DNA of 64,000 nucleotides from Candidatus Marinacidobacterales bacterium. GTDB taxonomy: Bacteria > Acidobacteriota > Vicinamibacteria > Marinacidobacterales > DATDRI01. The stretch spans positions 3,360,001 to 3,424,000 of the forward strand of contig OZ245365.1 in assembly GCA_965226495.1 (NCBI GenBank), given 5' to 3'. How positions within the stretch are numbered: position 1 is the stretch's first letter; the number at the start of each line of letters is the position of its first letter. Made by a program: the position numbers and the translations under genes. Of the stretch, positions 1,202-56,200 are shown in pieces. The notes beneath the pieces were generated by a model that saw nothing but the letters and a program-made list of their open reading frames with translations, did no database searches and had not been told where the DNA came from.

Positions 1202-2254
1202 GTGAGAACTTTCGCCGCTGTCGGCGTGGTCGCATCGATTTACGCCTCTGCAAGCCAGCCTCTCCCAACGGTCGTCATCCTCTCGACGGGCGGTACCATC
1301 GCGAGTCGCTACGATCCCGACAAAGGGGGCCTGGTTCCGGCGTTGAGTGGGAGCGAACTCGTCGAGGCGGTGCCCGAGCTCGCCGCGGTCGCGCACGTCC
1401 AGGTCGAACAGATTTCCAATATCGGTAGCGCCGATATGACCCCCGAAATCTGGTTGAAGCTGGCGCGTAGGGCGAACGAAGTCCTATCCGGCGACGATGT
1501 CACCGGGGTCGTCGTGACGCACGGCACCGACACACTGGAAGAAACCGCCTACTTCCTCGACCTCACCGTGACGAGCTCCAAACCCGCCATCATGGTCGGA
1601 AGCCAGCGTGCAGCGTCTTATCCGGATACCGACGGCCCACGCAATCTACTGAACGCCGTTCGGGTGGCCGTCTCGCCGGAAGCGGTCGACATGGGAACCC
1701 TGGTGGTCATGAACGGGCAAATCAACGCAGCCCGAGAGGTGACGAAGACCAACACCATCGCCCGAGAGACTTTTCGGACGCTGGAGTTTGGTGCCCTCGG
1801 AGTCGCCAACTTAGGAGGGGTGCGTTTCTATAGAGCACCTTTGCGGCGTCAAACGATTCCCCTGGACGCCGACGCGCGCTTGGGTCGCGTGGAGATCGTC
1901 CCCCACTACGCAGGTGCCGATGGCCGACTCGTCCGCGCCTTATTGAACGATGACGAGCCACCTCCGTTGGCCGGACTCGTCATCGCAGCGACGGGGCTGG
2001 GCCACGTCAGCGCCTCGATGCATGACGCGATACAGGAAGCGCGCGAACGCGACATCCCCGTCGTTATTAGCACGCGGGTTTACACGGGGCGATTGATGCC
2101 CCTCTATGCGGGAAAGGGCAAGGGTGTTGATCTTCGCGAGCTCGGCTGCGTCCTCGCGGATAACCTCAGTCCTCAGAAAGCTCGGATTTTGTTGATGGTC
2201 GCTCTGACCAAGACCACCGACCGCGACGAGCTTCAGCGCGTTTTTGATTCGTGA
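1202..2254 (+). CDS. ansB: L-asparaginase (type II-like, signal peptide)
   Basis: TGGTIA and HGTDTLEETA catalytic motifs, plus LSPQKARILL. Confidence 0.9.
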   Translation: MRTFAAVGVVASIYASASQPLPTVVILSTGGTIASRYDPDKGGLVPALSGSELVEAVPELAAVAHVQVEQISNIGSADMTPEIWLKLARRANEVLSGDDVTGVVVTHGTDTLEETAYFLDLTVTSSKPAIMVGSQRAASYPDTDGPRNLLNAVRVAVSPEAVDMGTLVVMNGQINAAREVTKTNTIARETFRTLEFGALGVANLGGVRFYRAPLRRQTIPLDADARLGRVEIVPHYAGADGRLVRALLNDDEPPPLAGLVIAATGLGHVSASMHDAIQEARERDIPVVISTRVYTGRLMPLYAGKGKGVDLRELGCVLADNLSPQKARILLMVALTKTTDRDELQRVFDS

Positions 2255-2367
2255 ATGTAGTCAGACGCCTGACAACGAGAAGAATCCAATTCGAACGCGA
2301 CCTTCGGCAGGCAACCATTGACTTTTCAGGGTGCGAGACCGTATTTTGCACGTCGAGGAGAACCCTA

Positions 2368-2943
2368 ATGAGGTCTTCCCTTTTCGGAACCATCGACGAG
2401 ACGTTCGATGCGGCTATCTTCATCGGGTATCACTCGAGCGCATCGAACCCCAAAGGGGTCGCCGCGCACACGTACACTGGCGTTTGGACCGACGTAAAGT
2501 TAAACGGGGTCTCCGTTCCGGAGGCGGCTCTCAACGCCGCCATCGCGGGTCACTTCGGCGTACCGGTGGCGATGATTTCTGGAGACGACGCCATCATCGA
2601 TGAAGCTCGCTCGCTTCTCAGGGACGTCGAAGGCGCGATCGTGAAGTGGAATTACGGTGAGAGTGCGGCTCGCACGCTGATGCCCGAAGCCGCCTTCAAG
2701 CTCATCCGAGAGAAGGTCGAGAGAGCGCTCGGCCGGATGGGAGACTTCGAACCGTACGTGCTCGAAAAACCCGTGCGCGTCGACATGAGTTTTTCGACCG
2801 CGCTCCCTGCAGAGACACTCGCCTTCCTTCCCTCTATCGAGCGAACCGGCTCCCACAGCATCCGTTTCATCACCGAAGATATGTTCGCCGTCTCCAAATT
2901 TTTAGAGTTCGTGTCGCTTTACCGCCCCGAGTCGGCGTCCTAA
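2368..2943 (+). pseudogene. dppA: M55 D-aminopeptidase (DppA family) with in-frame N-terminal deletion
   Basis: IDETFDAAIFIGYH...AHT...SGDD motifs are present. RBS GAGGAG and ATG 2368 (MRSSLFGT) join directly to the mid-protein; the N-terminal DxEG Zn-ligand segment is missing. Confidence 0.75.
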
Positions 2944-44744: not shown

Positions 44745-45379
44745 TTTTCCAGTCGAGAGACGAGGTCGGCAAGGTCAGACACGTCACTGATGGGTGGGTC
44801 TTGGGAGACCGCGATACGCACCGCAAACGGTTCTTTCGGCTCCCCCACAGCCTCGACTTGGATGTCGTCCGCCTCGGGATAAAGCTCACCGAGGAACGGA
44901 AGCAGCCCTTCCTTTACCGCGTCGAATGCCTCCGGCGTTCGCGGTGCGAGAAGGCGGTTTTGGATCTTGAAAAGCGCCTCGTCATAACGAAAGTGGAGCT
45001 TTCCTTCGAACGCCGGCTCCGCCTGGAGAAGCATGCAAGCCTTCAAAGCGGCGCCGAAGGCTCGACGGAGCCGCGAGCGCACGTCACCTTCGGCCCTCCG
45101 TTTGCGACTATAAAGAAGGCCAAGCCGTCCCTCAGCCTGATCCAAGCTGTACTGGCCTTCATGACACATGAGTAAGACGCCCGGGCCATGATGGACGTGG
45201 GAATAATCGGCAACGTCGATCATCACTTCGTTCTCCAAGCGGTGGGACTGTATCCACTCATGGAAGATCGGGACGAAGTCCCTTGGTCCCAACTCGACGG
45301 AGTCAACCGCGTAGAACTTGATCGCGAGCTCGTGCGCTTCCAGCGGGCTCACGACGCGGGCGCTAGACGGCGGCGGCAT
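44741..45379 (-). CDS. Hypothetical protein cotranscribed with sulfite reductase
   Basis: Overlaps the reductase stop; FH.WIQ...IDVADYSHVHHGPGVLL. Confidence 0.75.
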   Translation of the reverse strand: MPPPSSARVVSPLEAHELAIKFYAVDSVELGPRDFVPIFHEWIQSHRLENEVMIDVADYSHVHHGPGVLLMCHEGQYSLDQAEGRLGLLYSRKRRAEGDVRSRLRRAFGAALKACMLLQAEPAFEGKLHFRYDEALFKIQNRLLAPRTPEAFDAVKEGLLPFLGELYPEADDIQVEAVGEPKEPFAVRIAVSQDPPISDVSDLADLVSRLEN

Positions 45380-47750
45380 CCAGTTGCTCCAACGAACGCC
45401 CGTGGCAAGCGTACACCGCCTCGATAAACAATTGAGCTTCTTCGATGCGATGGTGAGCGGCGTCCGCAGTCAAGTCGCGGTTACCGTCTAGCTCTTCGCG
45501 GTGGATGCGGAACAAGTAGTTGCCAAATTTCCCTCCCGCATACGGGTCGAAGAAGAGTTTGGTGTCGTAGAAGCGGGACCGGAACTCACGGACAATCTTG
45601 TCAGCACTGTCAGGCCTGTCAGGCCTGACAGCCTCGCCCGGCTGGCCGACGGCTAAATCGATCTCAGCATTTTGGGAGCGCACCAGCGCCGCAGCGGCGT
45701 CGAGCATCGCCCGAAAGGCCGTCTTTGCCGAATCGCGCGGATTCCCAGCGTCCAACTGCACTTGCGCCTCGAAGACTTGACGCTCGCTGGCGGCAAGGGA
45801 GAAATCGAAGCGCGATACCACCTCGCCCGCACACTCACCCTTTCCCATGTCCCCTAGTGTGAACTCTCGCGGATCCCCCCAATCGGAGTAGAGCGTTCGG
45901 TCCTGGTCGTAACTCGGAATCTCGGTCAAGTCATCGAGCATCGAGCGGACCTTGAGCTTACCCATTCGGCCGATGAAGTCTTGAAACTTCTCGCTACGCT
46001 TTCCGTCGCGCCGAAACCAATCGGTGATCCGGGTTACCACATCGGGAATTCGCTTCGACGGCACCGCACCCACTGCTAACCCAAAAGACTTCCCATTCTC
46101 CGTCCACTGTCCACCCAGAACGACCTGAAAGTGCGGGACGGTGCGGCCTCCACTCCTGCGACTCACTCCGTAGAAACCGAGGTCGGCAACCGAGTGTTGA
46201 CCACAAGAATTGAAGCACCCGCTGACTTTGATACGTAGACCGTTGAGCGAAGCGTCGAAGGCGAGGTTCTTCTCCAGGAGACGCGTCCGGAGCTCCTCGG
46301 CAAGACCGCGCGAAGAGGCGATACCCAACTTGCAGGTGTCGGTGCCCGGGCAGGTGGTGACGTCTACGATGGAGCCCGCACCCGGCTCGCCCAGCCCTAC
46401 TTCTTTGAGTGCGGAGTAGAGGTCGGGCAAGTCGGCTTCGGCAACCCACCGAAGGACGATGTTCTGGTCGACGGTCGTGCGAACCGAATCGCCGCTGAAC
46501 CGCCGTGCCAAACCGGCGAGCCGTTGCATTTGATGAGAAGACAGATCCCCCAGGGGAAGGGTGATGGCTGCCACCGAGTAGCCCGGCTGACTTTGCTGGT
46601 AGACGTTGGTGGCCGTCCACGCTGCGAAACCTTCGGGGTAAGGGCCCGGTCCCAGACGCGCCGATCGATGAGCCGGCTGGTCGGTGGCCGCCGTCAAGAA
46701 GACTTCCGGAACCGACCGACCGGCCTCGAACGCGGAGACAAGCCCGGTCCATCGCGCATCGGCCGGAAGCTTTTGTCGTTCCTCCAATACCAGGCGCCGA
46801 AACTCGTCGATTCCCAGACTCGCGACCACGAATTTGAGACGGGCGCGAGCCCGATTCTTCTTTTCTCCCAAGCGCGCGAAGACCCGGCACACGGCTTGCG
46901 CAATGGGCAACATTTCTTCCACCGGCAGGAAAGCATCGAAAAGCTTCGCCTGGTAGGGTACGGCACCCAGACCACCCCCCACGTAAAGCTCGAACCCAGG
47001 ACGGCTGCTACCATTTACGGTCTCGGTCTTCGCGATGAAACCGAGGTCATGAAAAGCCGTGAGGCCGCAGGACTCTTGCTTGCAGCCGGAGAACGCGATC
47101 TTGAACTTCCGACCGAAGTCCTGCGCGTCGGGGTGACCGAGCAAGAAGTAGGTCAGAGCCTTGGCATAAGGCGTCACGTCGAACGTTTCCCCGCGACACA
47201 CGCCGGACAAGGGGCAGGCGGTGACGTTCCGCACTGAATTGCCGCAGGCTTCTTGAGTGGTAATGCCGACCGCGGCGAGGCGTCTCATCATGTCCGGAGT
47301 GTCGTCGATGTGGACGAAATGTAGCTGGAAATCCTGCCGGGTCGTGACGTGCAGGATGCCGTCGGAATAATCGTCGGCCAGCTCGGCCAGAACATCCATC
47401 TGCTCCGGCGTCACGCTACCGAATGGGATCTTGATGCGTTGCATGCCGGGAGCATCCCAGAGCGTGTTGGGGCCCTTCATCACCGACCCGGAGGGGTACT
47501 CGAGCTTTTGACTTCGCCGACCGTCGTGTCGCTGACCGTTGTCGTACCGCTGTCCGTAGACACCCCGGCGGAGCCGTGTCTCGTTGAAAAGCTTCTCCTC
47601 CAGCTTGCCCTGGCGGCGAAGCTCGACCTCTGTCTCGAAGATGTCGATCTCGCGACCCAGCTCGGCCGGCATCTTGTCGGCGAGCTCCTGCTTCCAGCTG
47701 AGCTCCGAAAGTGACGTGGTCGAAACCATAGGCCCGGTAGGCGTGCTCAT
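45363..47750 (-). CDS. Ferredoxin-dependent sulfite/nitrite reductase (siroheme) with C-terminal helical (HEPN-like) extension
   Basis: TTRQD, RKFKIAFSGC, CPGTDTC...SGCFNSCGQH 4Fe-4S/siroheme ligands. Confidence 0.9.
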   Translation of the reverse strand: MSTPTGPMVSTTSLSELSWKQELADKMPAELGREIDIFETEVELRRQGKLEEKLFNETRLRRGVYGQRYDNGQRHDGRRSQKLEYPSGSVMKGPNTLWDAPGMQRIKIPFGSVTPEQMDVLAELADDYSDGILHVTTRQDFQLHFVHIDDTPDMMRRLAAVGITTQEACGNSVRNVTACPLSGVCRGETFDVTPYAKALTYFLLGHPDAQDFGRKFKIAFSGCKQESCGLTAFHDLGFIAKTETVNGSSRPGFELYVGGGLGAVPYQAKLFDAFLPVEEMLPIAQAVCRVFARLGEKKNRARARLKFVVASLGIDEFRRLVLEERQKLPADARWTGLVSAFEAGRSVPEVFLTAATDQPAHRSARLGPGPYPEGFAAWTATNVYQQSQPGYSVAAITLPLGDLSSHQMQRLAGLARRFSGDSVRTTVDQNIVLRWVAEADLPDLYSALKEVGLGEPGAGSIVDVTTCPGTDTCKLGIASSRGLAEELRTRLLEKNLAFDASLNGLRIKVSGCFNSCGQHSVADLGFYGVSRRSGGRTVPHFQVVLGGQWTENGKSFGLAVGAVPSKRIPDVVTRITDWFRRDGKRSEKFQDFIGRMGKLKVRSMLDDLTEIPSYDQDRTLYSDWGDPREFTLGDMGKGECAGEVVSRFDFSLAASERQVFEAQVQLDAGNPRDSAKTAFRAMLDAAAALVRSQNAEIDLAVGQPGEAVRPDRPDSADKIVREFRSRFYDTKLFFDPYAGGKFGNYLFRIHREELDGNRDLTADAAHHRIEEAQLFIEAVYACHGRSLEQLDAAAV

Positions 47751-48553
47751 GCCGGGACTCCTTTCTCTAAGGCAAGGAAAAGCGGGTCTTCGATGGCAAC
47801 GCGATCGGCGATAGCAATGCGATCGGCGAGCGAAACGACTTCGCCAATGACCAGCGTGCCGGGAACGTCGCCAGGAGCGTGGTCGAACTCGTTGCTTGCC
47901 GGAAGCGGAATCTGCCCCAACTCCGCGAGGTCGCTCACCCAGGTCGCGGCCTGTGGCGTCGACGCTCCCAAAATGAGGGCGGCCGGCGTATCAGGCCTCC
48001 AACCTTGAAGCATCAGGAACTCCGAAAGATCGCCGCGATTGGCGACTCCCATCAGCACCACCAATGTGATCGAATTGGGTGTGACGGTCTCGAGTAAGGG
48101 ACGGTAAGACGCCGCGGCGTGTCCCGATACCACCATGAACCCGGCGGTCAGACCACGGTGCGTCACTGGGATACCGGCGAGAGCAGGAGCCGCCACTGCG
48201 GAGCTGATTCCCGGAATGACCTCGAAGGGGATCCCCGCTGCGGCAAGGGCGAGAGCTTCTTCCCCGCCCCGACCCAAAACAAAAGGATCGCCGCCCTTGA
48301 GCCGCACCACACGCTGGCCCCGGCGCGCGGCGTTTATCATGATGCGATGGATCGTGTCCTGGGGAGTCGACTTTCTCCGCGCCCGCTTGCCGACGTCGAA
48401 GGCTCGCGCCTTGGGTGCAAGGGCCAAAATTTCCGGTGATACCAAGGCGTCGTGCAAAACGAGGTCGGCCTCGCTCAAGCGCCGCGCCGCCTTCATCGTC
48501 AAGAGCTCCGGGTCACCGGGCCCCGCGCCGACCAGCGAGACGAACCCGGTCAT
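47747..48553 (-). CDS. cobA: Uroporphyrinogen-III C-methyltransferase
   Basis: LVGAGPGDPELLT, RLKGGDPFVLGRGGEE, PGISS. Confidence 0.95.
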   Translation of the reverse strand: MTGFVSLVGAGPGDPELLTMKAARRLSEADLVLHDALVSPEILALAPKARAFDVGKRARRKSTPQDTIHRIMINAARRGQRVVRLKGGDPFVLGRGGEEALALAAAGIPFEVIPGISSAVAAPALAGIPVTHRGLTAGFMVVSGHAAASYRPLLETVTPNSITLVVLMGVANRGDLSEFLMLQGWRPDTPAALILGASTPQAATWVSDLAELGQIPLPASNEFDHAPGDVPGTLVIGEVVSLADRIAIADRVAIEDPLFLALEKGVPA

Positions 48554-49119
48554 GGCTCACGCTCCTCGTAGATCTCGTTCAGGGCCTGGAGTAGCCGCGG
48601 GCGACGCTCGGCAATCGGAACACCTTCTTGACGCCATAGGCTGCGCGCTTCACGGGCGACGCTCGTCCACTGATCCAAATCGCTGGGCAGCAGATGATCC
48701 AGGGCTTCCCGCATCAGGCCGGATAAGGCAGGGGCAGCTCCGTTCGTGGAAATGCCGAGCGTAACCCCCGAGCGACGCACGACACCCGCCCCGTAAGCGG
48801 TTGCACTCGCAAGATCGTCCACCGCAATAACGAAGAGGCGGCGTTCCGTTGCAGCCTCAGAGACCTCTCGGTTCACCTCGGGCGGCGCGGCCGACACCAC
48901 GAACCAGCAATCGTCGAGATCGCTGGGCCGAAAGGAACGGCGGTGAAGACTCAGATTCGGGTGAACCATCTCGAACTTGATCTCCGGAGCCACCAATGTG
49001 ACACGAGCGCCGGCCTCTAAAAGGCTCTTGGTCTTTGCTTCCGCGACCGGACCGCCCCCTGCGACGAGTACACGGCGACCGGCGAGCTTGAGGAAGATCG
49101 GAAAAAGAGGCGTTGACAT
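48550..49119 (-). CDS. Precorrin-2 dehydrogenase / sirohydrochlorin ferrochelatase (CysG N-terminal / SirC)
   Basis: LFPIFLKLAGRRVLVAGGG.VA, ISTNG.AP; start MSTPL. Confidence 0.9.
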   Translation of the reverse strand: MSTPLFPIFLKLAGRRVLVAGGGPVAEAKTKSLLEAGARVTLVAPEIKFEMVHPNLSLHRRSFRPSDLDDCWFVVSAAPPEVNREVSEAATERRLFVIAVDDLASATAYGAGVVRRSGVTLGISTNGAAPALSGLMREALDHLLPSDLDQWTSVAREARSLWRQEGVPIAERRPRLLQALNEIYEEREP

Positions 49120-49121
49120 AG

Positions 49122-49868
49122 TTATGACCCCGTCGGCTGCAAAACCGGCAATAACACGAGGCGCGATGCCCGGTTGTGAATGCCGCATTCGGTCTTGGTG
49201 CTGCCACGCCATCTACCGGCGCGTGGATCTTCTCCGAGTCGCACCGGGGTGGTGCAAGGCATGCAGCCAATACTCGGATAGCCTCGCTCGTGGAGCGGGT
49301 TGAAGGGGACGTCGTGCTCCCGTACGTATTCCCGCACGTCGCGGGTCGTCCACTCGACCAGCGGGTTGATCTTGACGAGCCCGAACTTCTCATCGAACCC
49401 GACTAGTGGTGCGCTGGCCCGTTCTGGAGTCTGGTCCCGCCGCAGAGCGCTGATCCAAGCCTCCGCTCCTTCGAGCGCGGCCCGCAGCGGCAGGACTTTC
49501 CTCAACTCGCAGCAGCGGTCCGGCTCTCGTTCCCACAAACCCTCACCGAAGCGACTCGCCTGCTCAGAAAGGGAAAGCTCCGGTCGTGCGGCGCGAACGC
49601 GAAGCCCGTAGCGTTCTTCGAGCTTGCTCCAAAGGGAATAGGTCTCTTCGAAAAACAAACCGGTGTCGAGAGTGAAAATGTCGACTGGCAACTGATTCCT
49701 GCCAATGATGTCGATGAGCACACACCCTTCGACCCCGAAGGCGGTTGCCATCACGAGCCGGGGCGCGAAACGCTCCGACGCCACGCGGAGAATGTCGGTG
49801 GTCGCACGGACCTTGAGAAGACGGTCCATGTCACGAATCTGCTGTTCTCGCTCTAGCTGCTGCATCAT
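49122..49868 (-). CDS. cysH: APS/PAPS reductase (4Fe-4S APS-reductase type)
   Basis: LDTG, RCCELRK, GYPSIGCMPCT, RAGRW, ECGIH. Confidence 0.93.
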   Translation of the reverse strand: MMQQLEREQQIRDMDRLLKVRATTDILRVASERFAPRLVMATAFGVEGCVLIDIIGRNQLPVDIFTLDTGLFFEETYSLWSKLEERYGLRVRAARPELSLSEQASRFGEGLWEREPDRCCELRKVLPLRAALEGAEAWISALRRDQTPERASAPLVGFDEKFGLVKINPLVEWTTRDVREYVREHDVPFNPLHERGYPSIGCMPCTTPVRLGEDPRAGRWRGSTKTECGIHNRASRLVLLPVLQPTGS

Positions 49869-52743: not shown

Positions 52744-53100
52744 ATGGCCCGAATCCTTGTTGTAGACGACAACGACGACATACGGCAAATGCTCCGGGAA
52801 CTACTGGAACGCGCCGGGCATGAGGTCACCGACAGCCACAATGCGGACGAGGCGTTACGGAGCTACCGCGAAAAACCATCGGATCTCTGCATCCTGGATC
52901 TACTGATGCCGGAAAAACAGGGCATGACCAGCATCCCGGAGTTCTTACGGGAGTTCCCAGACGTTAAGATCATTGCGATTTCGGGGGCCGGCCGGGAGTT
53001 TCTCGCCCTCGCCAAGAAGCTCGGCGCCCAACGCGCGTACACCAAGCCATTGGAACTGGATGAGTTAATGCAAGGTGTCAAGGAACTTCTTGACAACTAA
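52744..53100 (+). CDS. Single-domain response regulator
   Basis: ILVVDD, LDLLMP, IIAISG, KP. Confidence 0.9.
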   Translation: MARILVVDDNDDIRQMLRELLERAGHEVTDSHNADEALRSYREKPSDLCILDLLMPEKQGMTSIPEFLREFPDVKIIAISGAGREFLALAKKLGAQRAYTKPLELDELMQGVKELLDN

Positions 53101-53110
53101 GGAGGGAGGG

Positions 53111-53569
53111 ATGCAACGAATGATTCTACTCGTTTCGCTCGTAGTCTTCGCAGGTCTTGCGGTCACCGCAGAAGAGGCCGACCAACAGGTGGCCGAAGAG
53201 ATCATCGCTATCACCAAGGCGCAGTGGGCGGCCGAAAAAGAGAAGAACCTAGCGGAAGCGATGAAGAACGTCGCCGACGAGTACACCGAGTTCAATCCCA
53301 ACTCCCCGGTCCGCGTCGACGGCAAGGCGCTGGCTGTGCACATCCAAGAGGTCCTCGCCACCGGAAACAGCAAGTCGGTCTTGGCCGAGATGGCTAATGA
53401 GAAGGTCCAGGTCTATGGGGACGTCGCCATTCTGACCTACAACTATTTCGGCGCGGTCAAGGACGAGAACGGCAACATTGAGCAAACACCCGCCAAGTCA
53501 ACCCGTGTCTACGCGAAGAAAAACGGCAAGTGGATGCTGGTCCACGCCAACTTTGCGGTCGCTAATTGA
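53111..53569 (+). CDS. Secreted NTF2-like (DUF4440) protein
   Basis: Strong RBS, signal peptide, VQVYGDVAILTY...STRVY.K.NGKW.LVH. Confidence 0.85.
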   Translation: MQRMILLVSLVVFAGLAVTAEEADQQVAEEIIAITKAQWAAEKEKNLAEAMKNVADEYTEFNPNSPVRVDGKALAVHIQEVLATGNSKSVLAEMANEKVQVYGDVAILTYNYFGAVKDENGNIEQTPAKSTRVYAKKNGKWMLVHANFAVAN

Positions 53570-53654: not shown

Positions 53655-54140
53655 TTACGAGCAGGATCGGGAAACAAGCATTCCCAAGACCCCGAACACC
53701 ACACCGAAAAAAAGCGTAATCACCGTCCTGGTCCACGACCGGCCCGCTTGGCCCTGGGTTGAGACCATCTCGCCGAAGGATGCCTCTTTGACTTGCTCAT
53801 CCAACTGTTCGACAACCGCTATCGCCTTCTCCGTGGGCTTGACGTACCTCTTGACTCCACCCGGAACGTCCCACATCTGGACCTGGGCGTACTGCCGACG
53901 AGTTAAGGAAGACAAAATGTCGTGAAACTCGGTCCCCAGGACCCTGCCGGCTGCAACGTCGTAACCGACATCCGCCGCCAATTGCGGCTCCTGGACCCAT
54001 CCGTGTTTTTCGATCTTCCTCCCTCCCGGACTCTCGAGGCGAGAGCCGTCCGCGCCTTTGGGGCTGGTGCCGGTGGGACGGTGAAAGTTGACGAGAATCG
54101 TCAGGACTCTTTTCTCGTCCGGAGTCAAGTTGTCAGTCAC
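53655..54140 (-). CDS. Hypothetical protein (possible winged-helix N-terminus, C-terminal TM)
   Basis: 161-aa ORF, LTPDEKRVL start, hydrophobic C-terminal helix. Confidence 0.55.
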   Translation of the reverse strand: MTDNLTPDEKRVLTILVNFHRPTGTSPKGADGSRLESPGGRKIEKHGWVQEPQLAADVGYDVAAGRVLGTEFHDILSSLTRRQYAQVQMWDVPGGVKRYVKPTEKAIAVVEQLDEQVKEASFGEMVSTQGQAGRSWTRTVITLFFGVVFGVLGMLVSRSCS

Positions 54141-54197: not shown

Positions 54198-54686
54198 TCA
54201 CTGAATGGGCACGCCGAGCCCTGTTTCCACCGGATGGCCCCCCGTCTCCCATGCACGGAAACCACCTTGCAGCGCCGAGACGTTCGCGAATCCTGCCATC
54301 TTGAGCACAAGCGCCGCACCGGCGCTAACCTCCTCGGCCTGTCACGTGCAGTAGGTGACAATCGTAGCATCGCGGCTAATCTCTAGAACACGTTTGCCGA
54401 GATTGTTCAGGGGAATGGAGACCGCTCCGGGAATGTGTCCTCGCAAAAAATTCTCTCGGCTACGCACATCGATGACGATCACGTTGGACTCTTCTGGCCT
54501 TTCGAGGAGAGACACGAAATCTTCGAGCGAGATTCGTGGAACCCCCGCCCTGGCGGCCTCCTCGCTGCGTTCGACCGTTCGCGGTTCTTCAGAAACAGGG
54601 GGAACGCCAACATCGGCGGGTGGGGTCTCGCAAGACGTGACCAGCAGAAGTGGCGCAAGAATCACAAGCGATCCGTGGGCTTTCAC
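54198..54686 (-). CDS. Rhodanese-domain lipoprotein, probable selenoprotein (C-T-U)
   Basis: Lipobox VTSC; IDVR...GHIPGA; IVTYCT-TGA(54342-54344), then in-frame QAEEVSAGAALVLKMAGFANVSALQGGFRAWETGGHPVE completing the rhodanese fold. Confidence 0.85.
54303..54335 (-). promoter_or_regulatory. Candidate bacterial SECIS element
   Basis: AGCGCC-GGTGC-GGCGCT hairpin starting 16 nt after the UGA, with a G-initiated apical loop and an outer GAG/CTC pairing. Confidence 0.7.
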
Positions 54687-54784
54687 TTTATCCTTCCATG
54701 TGTTGTGGAGGTGGGGAAGCGCGGGGCTTCCCCTCAAGAAATTATACGCGAATCGCGCGCGTAGGGCGATCCGGAGATCTCTGA

Positions 54785-54813
54785 TTGACATTGGAAAGCG
54801 GTAGGTCTAGCCT
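54785..54813 (+). promoter_or_regulatory. Sigma70-type promoter
   Basis: TTGACA-17 nt-TAGCCT upstream of 54902. Confidence 0.5.
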
Positions 54814-54901
54814 AGCGGCCAGCGTTCTGCAAGCCTCTCTCATTCCAGCCCGGTTAAAAGAGGCACCTTATAAAAAGTACCCTTTTCATATGGAGGTAAT
54901 C

Positions 54902-55396
54902 ATGACGAAACACCCTTTATTACTGACCACCACGGCGGTGCTGCTCACCGTTATTGCGTGCGCGCCGCCACCCGAACCCCCACCCGAGATCGACATCGAA
55001 GCAGAAAGAGCAGCACTCACACAGGCAGCCAACCGCTATAGCGAGGGCGGCCATTCGATGGATATCGACGCCATTGCATCCCTTTATGCAAGCGACGCTT
55101 TGGTGATGGGCTCCAATATGGAGACGAAGGAAGGCGCGGCTGGAGTCCGCGAGTTCCTCGCCGCCTTCAAGGAGACCCCCGGTTTTGAGGTGAGTTTCGG
55201 AGCGCCGACCGTCGTAGTCTCCAAGGGAGCCGACATGGGCTACACGCTCGCCGATATCGAGATCTCGTTCGACGGCCCGGACGGGAAGCCGGTGAACTCA
55301 CGGGAACGTGATTTCCATCTCTGGAAGAAGCAGGCAGATGGTTCCTGGAAGATCGTCATTGATATATGGAACTCACCGGCTCCCGCCAGCGAGTAA
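54902..55396 (+). CDS. NTF2-like (DUF4440/YybH) lipoprotein
   Basis: GGAGG RBS, lipobox VIAC, DMGYT...WKKQADGSWKIVIDIWNS. Confidence 0.88.
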   Translation: MTKHPLLLTTTAVLLTVIACAPPPEPPPEIDIEAERAALTQAANRYSEGGHSMDIDAIASLYASDALVMGSNMETKEGAAGVREFLAAFKETPGFEVSFGAPTVVVSKGADMGYTLADIEISFDGPDGKPVNSRERDFHLWKKQADGSWKIVIDIWNSPAPASE

Positions 55397-55558: not shown

Positions 55559-55702
55559 GGACAGGAGATCGAAGCCGCGCTCAACGAGGCTGCGACCTGC
55601 TCATCGAACAGCCTGCACCTGTCAACCGAAACCGAGAGTAAGTAAAGGGTCGACATCTCCTCGCCGCGTGTGCTCAGGGGTAGTGTGTTCGTACGGAGAT
55701 CC

Positions 55703-56200
55703 ATGGCGAAATCCCGTCCCTTGCTGACCTACCTGCCGCTGTTGCTGGTGTGCTCGTGCTCGCCCCTGCCAGAGGCCTCGGTCGACCTCGAAGCCGAAAG
55801 GGCGGTGCTCCACGAAACGGCCGACGCTTTTCATGAGGCAGCCCCGTCCATGGATGTGGAGAAGCTCGTATCTCACTATGCGAGCGACGTACTGCTGCTG
55901 CCGCCTGGTGGCAAGAGGCTGCAGGGAACGGAAGCGGCCCGCGACTTTCTGGCCGGCTTCGCAGCGATGCCGGGTGCCAAGGCCCGCTTCGAAGAGCCTC
56001 GACTCATCGAGGTCGCCCGCGGCGGTGACCTTGGCTACACGTTGGGCGATGCGGTGTTCTCATTCGATAGCCCCCACGGGAATACTCTGGTCCAACGCGT
56101 CCGAGAATTCCACCTGTGGAAGAAGCAGGATGACGGCTCGTGGAAGATCGTTATCGATATCTGGAACTCGGGGACTCCCCCACCAACACAGGGCCAATGA
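55703..56200 (+). CDS. NTF2-like (DUF4440/YybH) lipoprotein, paralog of 54902..55396
   Basis: DLEAERA.L, DLGYT, REFHLWKKQDDGSWKIVIDIWNS. Confidence 0.88.
   Translation: MAKSRPLLTYLPLLLVCSCSPLPEASVDLEAERAVLHETADAFHEAAPSMDVEKLVSHYASDVLLLPPGGKRLQGTEAARDFLAGFAAMPGAKARFEEPRLIEVARGGDLGYTLGDAVFSFDSPHGNTLVQRVREFHLWKKQDDGSWKIVIDIWNSGTPPPTQGQ

Follow-up and report, generated by a model that had tools for sequence, protein, structure and literature searches.

Introduction

Classical thiosulfate sulfurtransferases of the GlpE/PspE type have a basic active-site loop of six residues, C-R-x-G-x-R-[ST], and one of them, PspE, is periplasmic. Rhodaneses that contain selenocysteine (Sec, U) were first reported from Sargasso Sea data (PMC1088965). 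The form with a Cys-x-Sec (CxU) loop appears as 'COG0607 form 2' and as 'form 3, NF041203' in two reviews (PMC9312934, PMC13188914), which, in the text available, count it as a predicted selenoprotein; the first of them calls the functions of these proteins unclear. The other catalogued forms are UxxS, UxxG, UxU and TsoB UxxxxU (PMC13188914, PMC1976440), of which the UxU form is described in PMC1976440. The 2026 review, one of the two cited above, nowhere uses the terms lipoprotein, signal peptide or periplasm, and a full-text literature search for rhodanese selenoproteins as periplasmic lipoproteins found, within the partial texts it covered, no paper on such a protein type.

Here a rhodanese gene is described from a window (the whole stretch of DNA analysed, 64,000 nucleotides) in which the reading frame is interrupted by TGA within the active-site loop. 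The analysis indicates, with a probability of about 0.87, that this is an intact selenoprotein gene that has been mis-called as truncated. The initial annotation had recognised a CxU rhodanese selenoprotein at this locus. That identity stands, but the protein does not represent a new type, as the CxU form is already catalogued (NF041203, form 3); what is chiefly gained is a better model of the gene.

Gene model

The open reading frame as called (54342..54791, minus strand) ends ...IVTYCT-TGA. When the minus strand was re-read, the same frame was found to run on past this TGA for 47 sense codons (QAEEVSAGAALVLKMAGFANVSALQGGFRAWETGGHPVETGLGVPIQ) and to close with a second TGA, which is exactly the reading given in the initial annotation. 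The continued frame had there been taken for a single rhodanese, and the Pfam Rhodanese match does extend across the first TGA, which falls in the active-site loop, Cys113-Thr114-TGA115. Alignments of the orthologs cover residues 1-162 and so also run across it. The coordinates of the gene, its parts and its neighbours are collected in Table 1.

Table 1. Features of the rhodanese locus (positions are those of the window)
Feature	Position	Strand	Details
Full Sec-rhodanese gene (predicted)	54198..54686	minus	162 codons, GTG start, Sec codon 115, stop TGA 54200-54198
Start codon GTG	54686-54684	minus	opens the 162-codon frame
Shine-Dalgarno-like GGAAGGA	54691..54697	minus	4 nt before GTG; from direct reading of the sequence
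Predicted signal peptide, residues 1-18, and lipobox Cys19 (54632-54630)	54630..54686	minus	lipobox pattern
Rhodanese domain, PF00581	54246..54509	minus	Pfam 67.8 bits, gathering cut-off 22.2, E 1.2e-18; spans the TGA
Catalytic Cys113 (TGC)	54348..54350	minus	invariant column in both protein alignments
In-frame TGA, predicted selenocysteine, residue 115	54342..54344	minus	ortholog conservation, Sec/Cys alternation, Sec machinery
SECIS-type hairpin	54310..54326	minus	AGCGCC (54326-54321) / loop GGTGC (54320-54316) / GGCGCT (54315-54310)
ORF161, downstream gene	53655..54140	minus	57 nt after the rhodanese stop; winged-helix-like domain, then a long helix and a membrane helix at the C-terminus
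Sulfite reductase, uroporphyrinogen methylase, sirohaem-synthase-like NAD-binding protein, PAPS reductase	45363-49868	minus	in a row

The expectation that standard gene callers would truncate the gene was borne out by a search of a collection of 5.8 billion proteins. It gave ten matches of at least 68% identity, all of which end at the TGA and cover 70% of the query. The current gene models for the gene and for these ten close database entries are 111-149 residues long, and the last third of the rhodanese domain is missing from them.

A promoter scan found no sigma-70 consensus promoter at the rhodanese gene, and the terminator-like matches from the scan are not placed so as to flank the gene sensibly. 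A TATAAT at 54747-54742 was seen by reading of the sequence only.

The rhodanese domain and its active-site loop

An AlphaFold2 model of the protein had a mean pLDDT of 81.6, with means of 81-97 for blocks of 10 residues over residues 41-160, and with residues 1-30 disordered. Two rhodanese structures, 3nhv and 3tp9, were the top Foldseek matches to the model, and for 3tp9 the rmsd was 1.2 over 106 columns. Cys113 is invariant in both protein alignments (A1, 19 sequences; A2, 14 sequences), in which classical rhodaneses were included. It is therefore taken as the canonical catalytic cysteine, with Sec115 as an additional residue of the loop.

The loop reads Cys113-Thr114-Sec115-Gln-Ala-Glu-Glu (C-T-U-Q-A-E-E); it is acidic, contains no basic residues and does not fit the basic pattern of the GlpE/PspE type. 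GlpE and PspE of E. coli share the fold, the domain size and the position of the catalytic cysteine with the protein, but the latter falls far below the cut-offs of both family models (GlpE, NF001195, 35.8 against 102; PspE, NF007627, 29.4 against 102) and differs from both enzymes in having selenocysteine, and with it a second chalcogen in the loop, and in lacking basic loop residues. The UxxS, UxxG, UxU and TsoB forms likewise share the rhodanese fold with selenocysteine in the active-site loop. In those forms, however, it replaces the catalytic cysteine, whereas here the catalytic cysteine is kept and the predicted selenocysteine is an additional residue of the loop. Against the TsoB model the protein scored 34.5 bits, the cut-off being 805.

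The best NCBIfam model was NF041203 (rhodanese_LYCAU, 'rhodanese-related (seleno)protein'). The protein has the C-x-U (or C-x-C) loop of this family, but its score of 75.2 bits (69.5 in the genome search) lies below the cut-off of 115. Other CxU and CxC proteins tested against the model gave 69-101.5 bits, also below the cut-off, which was reached in only two of 301 genomes of the phylum. The gene is a relative of this narrowly drawn family and, by the family's own criterion, not a member of it. With form 3 it has in common a single rhodanese domain, selenocysteine two residues after the catalytic cysteine, the offset of the hairpin described below, and alternation with cysteine forms. It differs in its motif, TYCTU-Q in place of LYCAU-P, in its lipoprotein-type signal and linker, and in belonging to a separate clade.

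This clade was seen in a tree of 43 rhodanese domains, from which the partial sequence L060 was left out. Five orthologs, the gene studied here among them, formed a clade of their own (support 99/99) beside two database proteins, P0013 and P0162, and apart from the other 35 rows. Cysteine forms were scattered among the selenocysteine forms; as the tree was midpoint-rooted and the classical outgroup rows were long and misplaced, the direction of the Sec/Cys changes is not readable from it. The group stands as a sister to the CxU rhodanese selenoproteins already catalogued, which are themselves predictions. A search of protein representatives was dominated by multi-domain rhodaneses, and the only useful matches from it were P0012 and P0162.

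The in-frame TGA

The TGA is one step from a cysteine codon and gene callers stop at it, as would be expected if the locus were a pseudogene, that is, a CxC rhodanese in which TGC or TGT had mutated to TGA and in which the downstream frame was a decaying remnant. The orthologs speak against this. Among 61 related genomes searched, matches over the full length with a single internal TGA were present in G001 and G002, which are the remaining genomes of the genus (76% and 72% amino-acid identity), and two further orthologs were found on metagenome contigs (83% and 74%). All five orthologs, counting the gene itself, have TGA in the same column, at identities of 72-83%. A search of further genome contigs for related loci gave only three distant relatives.

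After the TGA, dN/dS is 0.23-0.43 in nine of the ten ortholog pairs, at dS up to 0.76; the tenth pair has only three differing sites in this part. Before the TGA the ratio is 0.28-0.72, so that the downstream part is as low or lower. There is neither a frameshift nor a further stop in the 47 codons after the TGA. The tail of a dead gene would behave otherwise, and this pattern indicates that purifying selection acts on the sequence beyond the TGA.

The same column was then compared over more distant relatives. The closest full-length database homolog with cysteine at this position is P0013, which has the sequence IVTYCTCPAEE there and is 41% identical in the alignment. When the 301 phylum genomes were searched with NF041203, 99 matched at E ≤ 1e-15, a tally that includes one genome flagged as unpublished (G083). 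Among the 30 loci returned by this search the column holds TGA in 22 and TGC or TGT in eight, three incidental pattern matches elsewhere in L092, L093 and L107 having been dropped from the count. P0162 was also used as the query against 401 genomes of the phylum, where 43 of the 48 matches listed had one TGA and five had none; one relative, L117, has cysteine at the column. The alternation of cysteine and UGA codons that the initial annotation had named as the check on its reading was thus found, both in P0013 and in the phylum sample. Given the TGA shared by all orthologs, the constraint on the frame beyond it and its prevalence in these more distant relatives, the pseudogene explanation is exceedingly improbable.

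P0162 itself (45% identity) is printed with tryptophan at the column, IVTYCTWPAEE. Its nearest genomic relative, L116 (46% identity, full length), has TGA there and not TGG, in a near-identical local context, and for this reason the tryptophan in P0162 is probably a TGA that was translated by the gene caller.

The genome, a single contig of 6.34 Mb, was searched for the selenocysteine machinery that the initial annotation had proposed to look for, and all of it was present: selA (570.1 bits), selB (377.7), selD (332.6) and tRNA-Sec (70.9) all scored above their curated cut-offs. ARAGORN also reported a tRNA-SeC with the anticodon tca. The selD gene lies outside the window (G000:C1:5697778-5698710, plus strand) and has an in-frame TGA of its own, in the motif TSAG-U-ASK, from which selenophosphate synthetase is itself a predicted selenoprotein in this genome. 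The selenocysteine system therefore appears to be in use.

A SECIS-type hairpin after the TGA

The hairpin that the initial annotation had placed 16 nt past the UGA was confirmed. Its stem has 6 bp and begins at the 16th nucleotide after the TGA, with 15 nt between. The feature common to bacterial SECIS elements is, according to the available text of PMC1088965, a small apical loop that holds a guanosine. With such a loop, containing G, just 3' of the UGA, the hairpin qualifies by sequence as a putative bacterial SECIS element. In E. coli fdhF the stem starts 11 nt after the UGA; at 15 nt the stem found here is further away than that of fdhF.

Taken singly the hairpin is not remarkable. When 60,000 TGA triplets were drawn at random from the genome, 727 of them (1.2%) were followed by a perfect 6-bp hairpin that has G early in its loop, and the folding energy of the 71 nt around the TGA has a z of -0.94, with 30 of 200 shuffles folding at least as well. 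As the signal from the single sequence is unremarkable, the case was built on comparison with other genes.

Among the five orthologs the 17-nt hairpin is identical except for one loop base, a change that is non-synonymous (Gly/Arg), and no synonymous change is seen in the stem codons AGC GCC.GT GCG GCG. A wider set of 32 CxU sequences, 30 of them distinct, was aligned for analysis of covariation. The hairpin is at the same offset in every one of these genes, with a stem of 5-6 bp and a loop of 5 nt, and loop position 2 (G26) is G in 32/32. In the alignment 89.4% of the hairpin cells are paired; sliding the 3' partner lowers this to 18-53%. Compensatory changes occur in three of the six pairs, a level reached by 0-1 of 500 shuffles of the 32 sequences, with the caveat that the covariation amounts to only four cells in these three pairs and that the stem encodes a conserved Ser-Ala-x-x-Ala, which may be a partial source of its conservation. 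For the first ten sequences by themselves the support was weak: they held a single compensatory change, and the covariation seen in them was equalled in 56 of 500 shuffles.

These comparisons also bear on the possibility that near-cognate or suppressor decoding inserts a different residue (Trp, Cys or Gly) at the UGA. The tryptophan printed in P0162 would fit such a reading, and so would the UGA-C context, which is leaky and is present in 10/10 genes of the first set and in 30/32 of the aligned genes. Against it, plain read-through gives no role to a hairpin whose position is fixed, whose loop G does not vary and whose stem shows compensatory changes, and the genome encodes the complete selenocysteine machinery. 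The nearest genomic relative of P0162 has TGA, as noted above. The rhodanese gene also ends in TGA, which argues that TGA is no general sense codon here. Read-through as a residue other than selenocysteine is accordingly judged very unlikely, and the UGA at 54344-54342 is, with high probability, decoded as selenocysteine. SelB and tRNA-Sec would be directed to it by the hairpin 16 nt downstream, and the product would be a single-domain rhodanese of 162 residues with a Cys113-Thr114-Sec115 loop.

Predicted export and membrane attachment

The initial annotation had noted a lipobox, LLLVTS-C, and had described the protein as an exported CxU rhodanese. The N-terminus was compared with a lipobox pattern of the PROSITE type. 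Residues 1-19 (MKAHGSLVILAPLLLVTS-C) fit this pattern, with ILAPLLLVTSC, the cysteine at 19 and a lysine at position 2 (K2). The strict pattern was matched by the protein and by two orthologs and failed in the two others, which have Pro at -2. Cys19 itself is kept in 5/5 orthologs, where it follows a hydrophobic stretch of 12 residues and precedes a linker rich in Pro and Glu. The genome encodes Lgt (129 bits) and LspA (122.6 bits) side by side, both above their cut-offs.

A membrane helix is found at the N-terminus of both nearest relatives, P0013 and P0162, and in P0013 it is preceded by 8 K/R. Of ten loci from the P0162 search, the gene studied here included, seven have a lipobox-type N-terminus, two a membrane anchor and one a plain signal-like sequence; one match to the lipobox pattern, in L117, was judged spurious. 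In the phylum, CxU rhodaneses that are exported or tethered to a membrane occur often, with 43 of 401 genomes matching at E ≤ 1e-18; they are known only from prediction. The lipoprotein-type export signal of the initial annotation was thus upheld, while the distinctiveness that it implied was not, exported forms being common.

It seems likely from the sequence that the domain is extracytoplasmic and tethered to the membrane. A selenoprotein that is real but cytoplasmic, or held by an uncleaved helix, was considered as well. The hydrophobic stretch at the N-terminus would then act either as a signal anchor or as a type I signal, for which the Pro at -2 in two of the five orthologs could be cited, together with the plain N-terminal membrane helices of the close relatives P0013, P0162, L116 and L117 and the type I-like signal of L124. 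This is the less probable alternative, to be given perhaps a one-in-five weight, since the strict lipobox is present in the protein, Cys19 is retained in all five orthologs between the hydrophobic stretch and the Pro/Glu-rich linker, Lgt and LspA are both encoded, and six other relatives in the phylum have clear lipoboxes; in all the variants, moreover, the domain is outside the cytoplasm. An extracytoplasmic lipoprotein is probably, therefore, what the gene encodes. On this pattern-based reading the lipoprotein-type signal peptide would lead to export, Cys19 would be lipidated, and a flexible linker of about 30 residues would tether the domain to the membrane outside the cytoplasm.

Possible chemistry

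The loop is acidic and without the basic residues of CRxGxR, and for this reason a non-classical chemistry is proposed. Cys113 would take up sulfane sulfur (or selenium) as a persulfide, and Sec115 could then attack the Cys113 persulfide to give an intramolecular S-Se bond. The enzyme might thus be a two-chalcogen redox or sulfur-transfer catalyst and not a classical thiosulfate:cyanide rhodanese. This Cys/Sec relay, suggested by the composition of the loop, is a tentative proposal and is considered possible rather than probable. The protein is small, has a single domain and should be soluble after cleavage, which makes it a convenient first biochemical subject for the Cys-x-Sec rhodanese loop.

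Neighbouring genes

The gene downstream, ORF161, directly follows the rhodanese gene in 4/4 ortholog loci, at 83-86% identity, and is more conserved than the rhodanese. It was found in three of the 61 related genomes, all of the same genus, with one weak match in addition, which is the same narrow range as that of the rhodanese orthologs. In the collection of 5.8 billion proteins it has only six relatives, at 76-96% identity. Neither Pfam nor NCBIfam yielded a usable match for ORF161, and no Pfam family is assigned to it. Its structural model has a pLDDT of 72.8, low after residue 124, and weakly resembles winged-helix regulators of the MarR/PadR type (best E 9e-4, TM 0.4-0.5); an Atlas look-up gave unnamed clusters and, at 0.78, a lead to a winged-helix family. 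A hydrophobic helix at residues 139-156 is followed by a tail of 4-5 residues, in which Ser-Cys is invariant (SRSCS in the window) though the helix varies. The fixed pairing with this tail-anchored winged-helix gene is the only unusual feature of the rhodanese gene.

A two-part envelope sensor made up of the Sec-rhodanese lipoprotein and ORF161 can be imagined, and is put forward as a long shot. The tail of ORF161, with its invariant Ser-Cys, would lie past the membrane helix and outside the cytoplasm, where the Cys113/Sec115 centre might persulfidate or oxidise the single tail cysteine. The DNA-binding domain inside the cell could in this way be kept informed of the envelope's sulfane-sulfur or redox state. 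To our knowledge no chalcogen-based signalling relay across a membrane has been described.

Three DUF4440/SnoaL-like genes, all on the plus strand, lie around the rhodanese gene (53075-53569, 54893-55396 and 55670-56200). At least the second of them has a lipoprotein-like N-terminus (…LLTVIAC), and the first two are kept beside the rhodanese gene in the ortholog loci.

The initial annotation had also pointed to a sulfate-assimilation operon about 4 kb away. The distance is correct, the sulfate-assimilation genes being 4.3 kb from the rhodanese gene on the same strand, but the functional significance attached to it is not maintained. Between them, in the opposite orientation on the plus strand, lie two-component genes, for a histidine kinase and for a response regulator, and a DUF4440 gene. 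The sulfate-assimilation genes and the rhodanese gene therefore do not share an operon, and the functional link was dropped. Within the sulfate-assimilation genes, the frames of the sirohaem-synthase-like NAD-binding protein and of PAPS reductase overlap by about 90 nt as listed.

Other rhodaneses with predicted selenocysteine codons

The rhodanese-like ExtH of Geobacter, from a selenoprotein cluster, was rejected as a close comparator: it is a 49-kDa protein and, in the text available, is not described as containing selenocysteine (PMC5877670).

Several loci, L040, L056, L063 and several of L086-L115, encode DedA-family membrane proteins fused to a C-terminal CT-U-P rhodanese, and the offset of their hairpin equals that in the gene studied here. 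The first three of these fusions share with that gene the CT-U loop motif and NF041203 as best family. They differ from it in that their rhodanese sits behind a multi-pass membrane domain of the DedA type, whereas the gene in the window has a lipoprotein signal, and the identity is about 37%.

In L037 (G057:C117, about 1453-2697, plus strand) the TGA is five residues after the catalytic cysteine (CGSPT-U-P), and the rhodanese is fused to a C-terminal domain with a potassium-channel-like TATSVGFGD motif. Judged by its sequence, this may be a selenocysteine form and a fusion outside the five rhodanese forms of the 2026 review.

Relatives of the same order (L039, L048, L064, L066, L068, L069 and L071-L081) have two further Sec-rhodanese types, in both of which TGA replaces the catalytic cysteine. 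The first reads VVY-U-AVGGRS (U-x-x-G) and continues into a fused domain of about 206 residues; the second is a small protein of about 116 residues with the motif PVLTT-U-MVGPRAARA.
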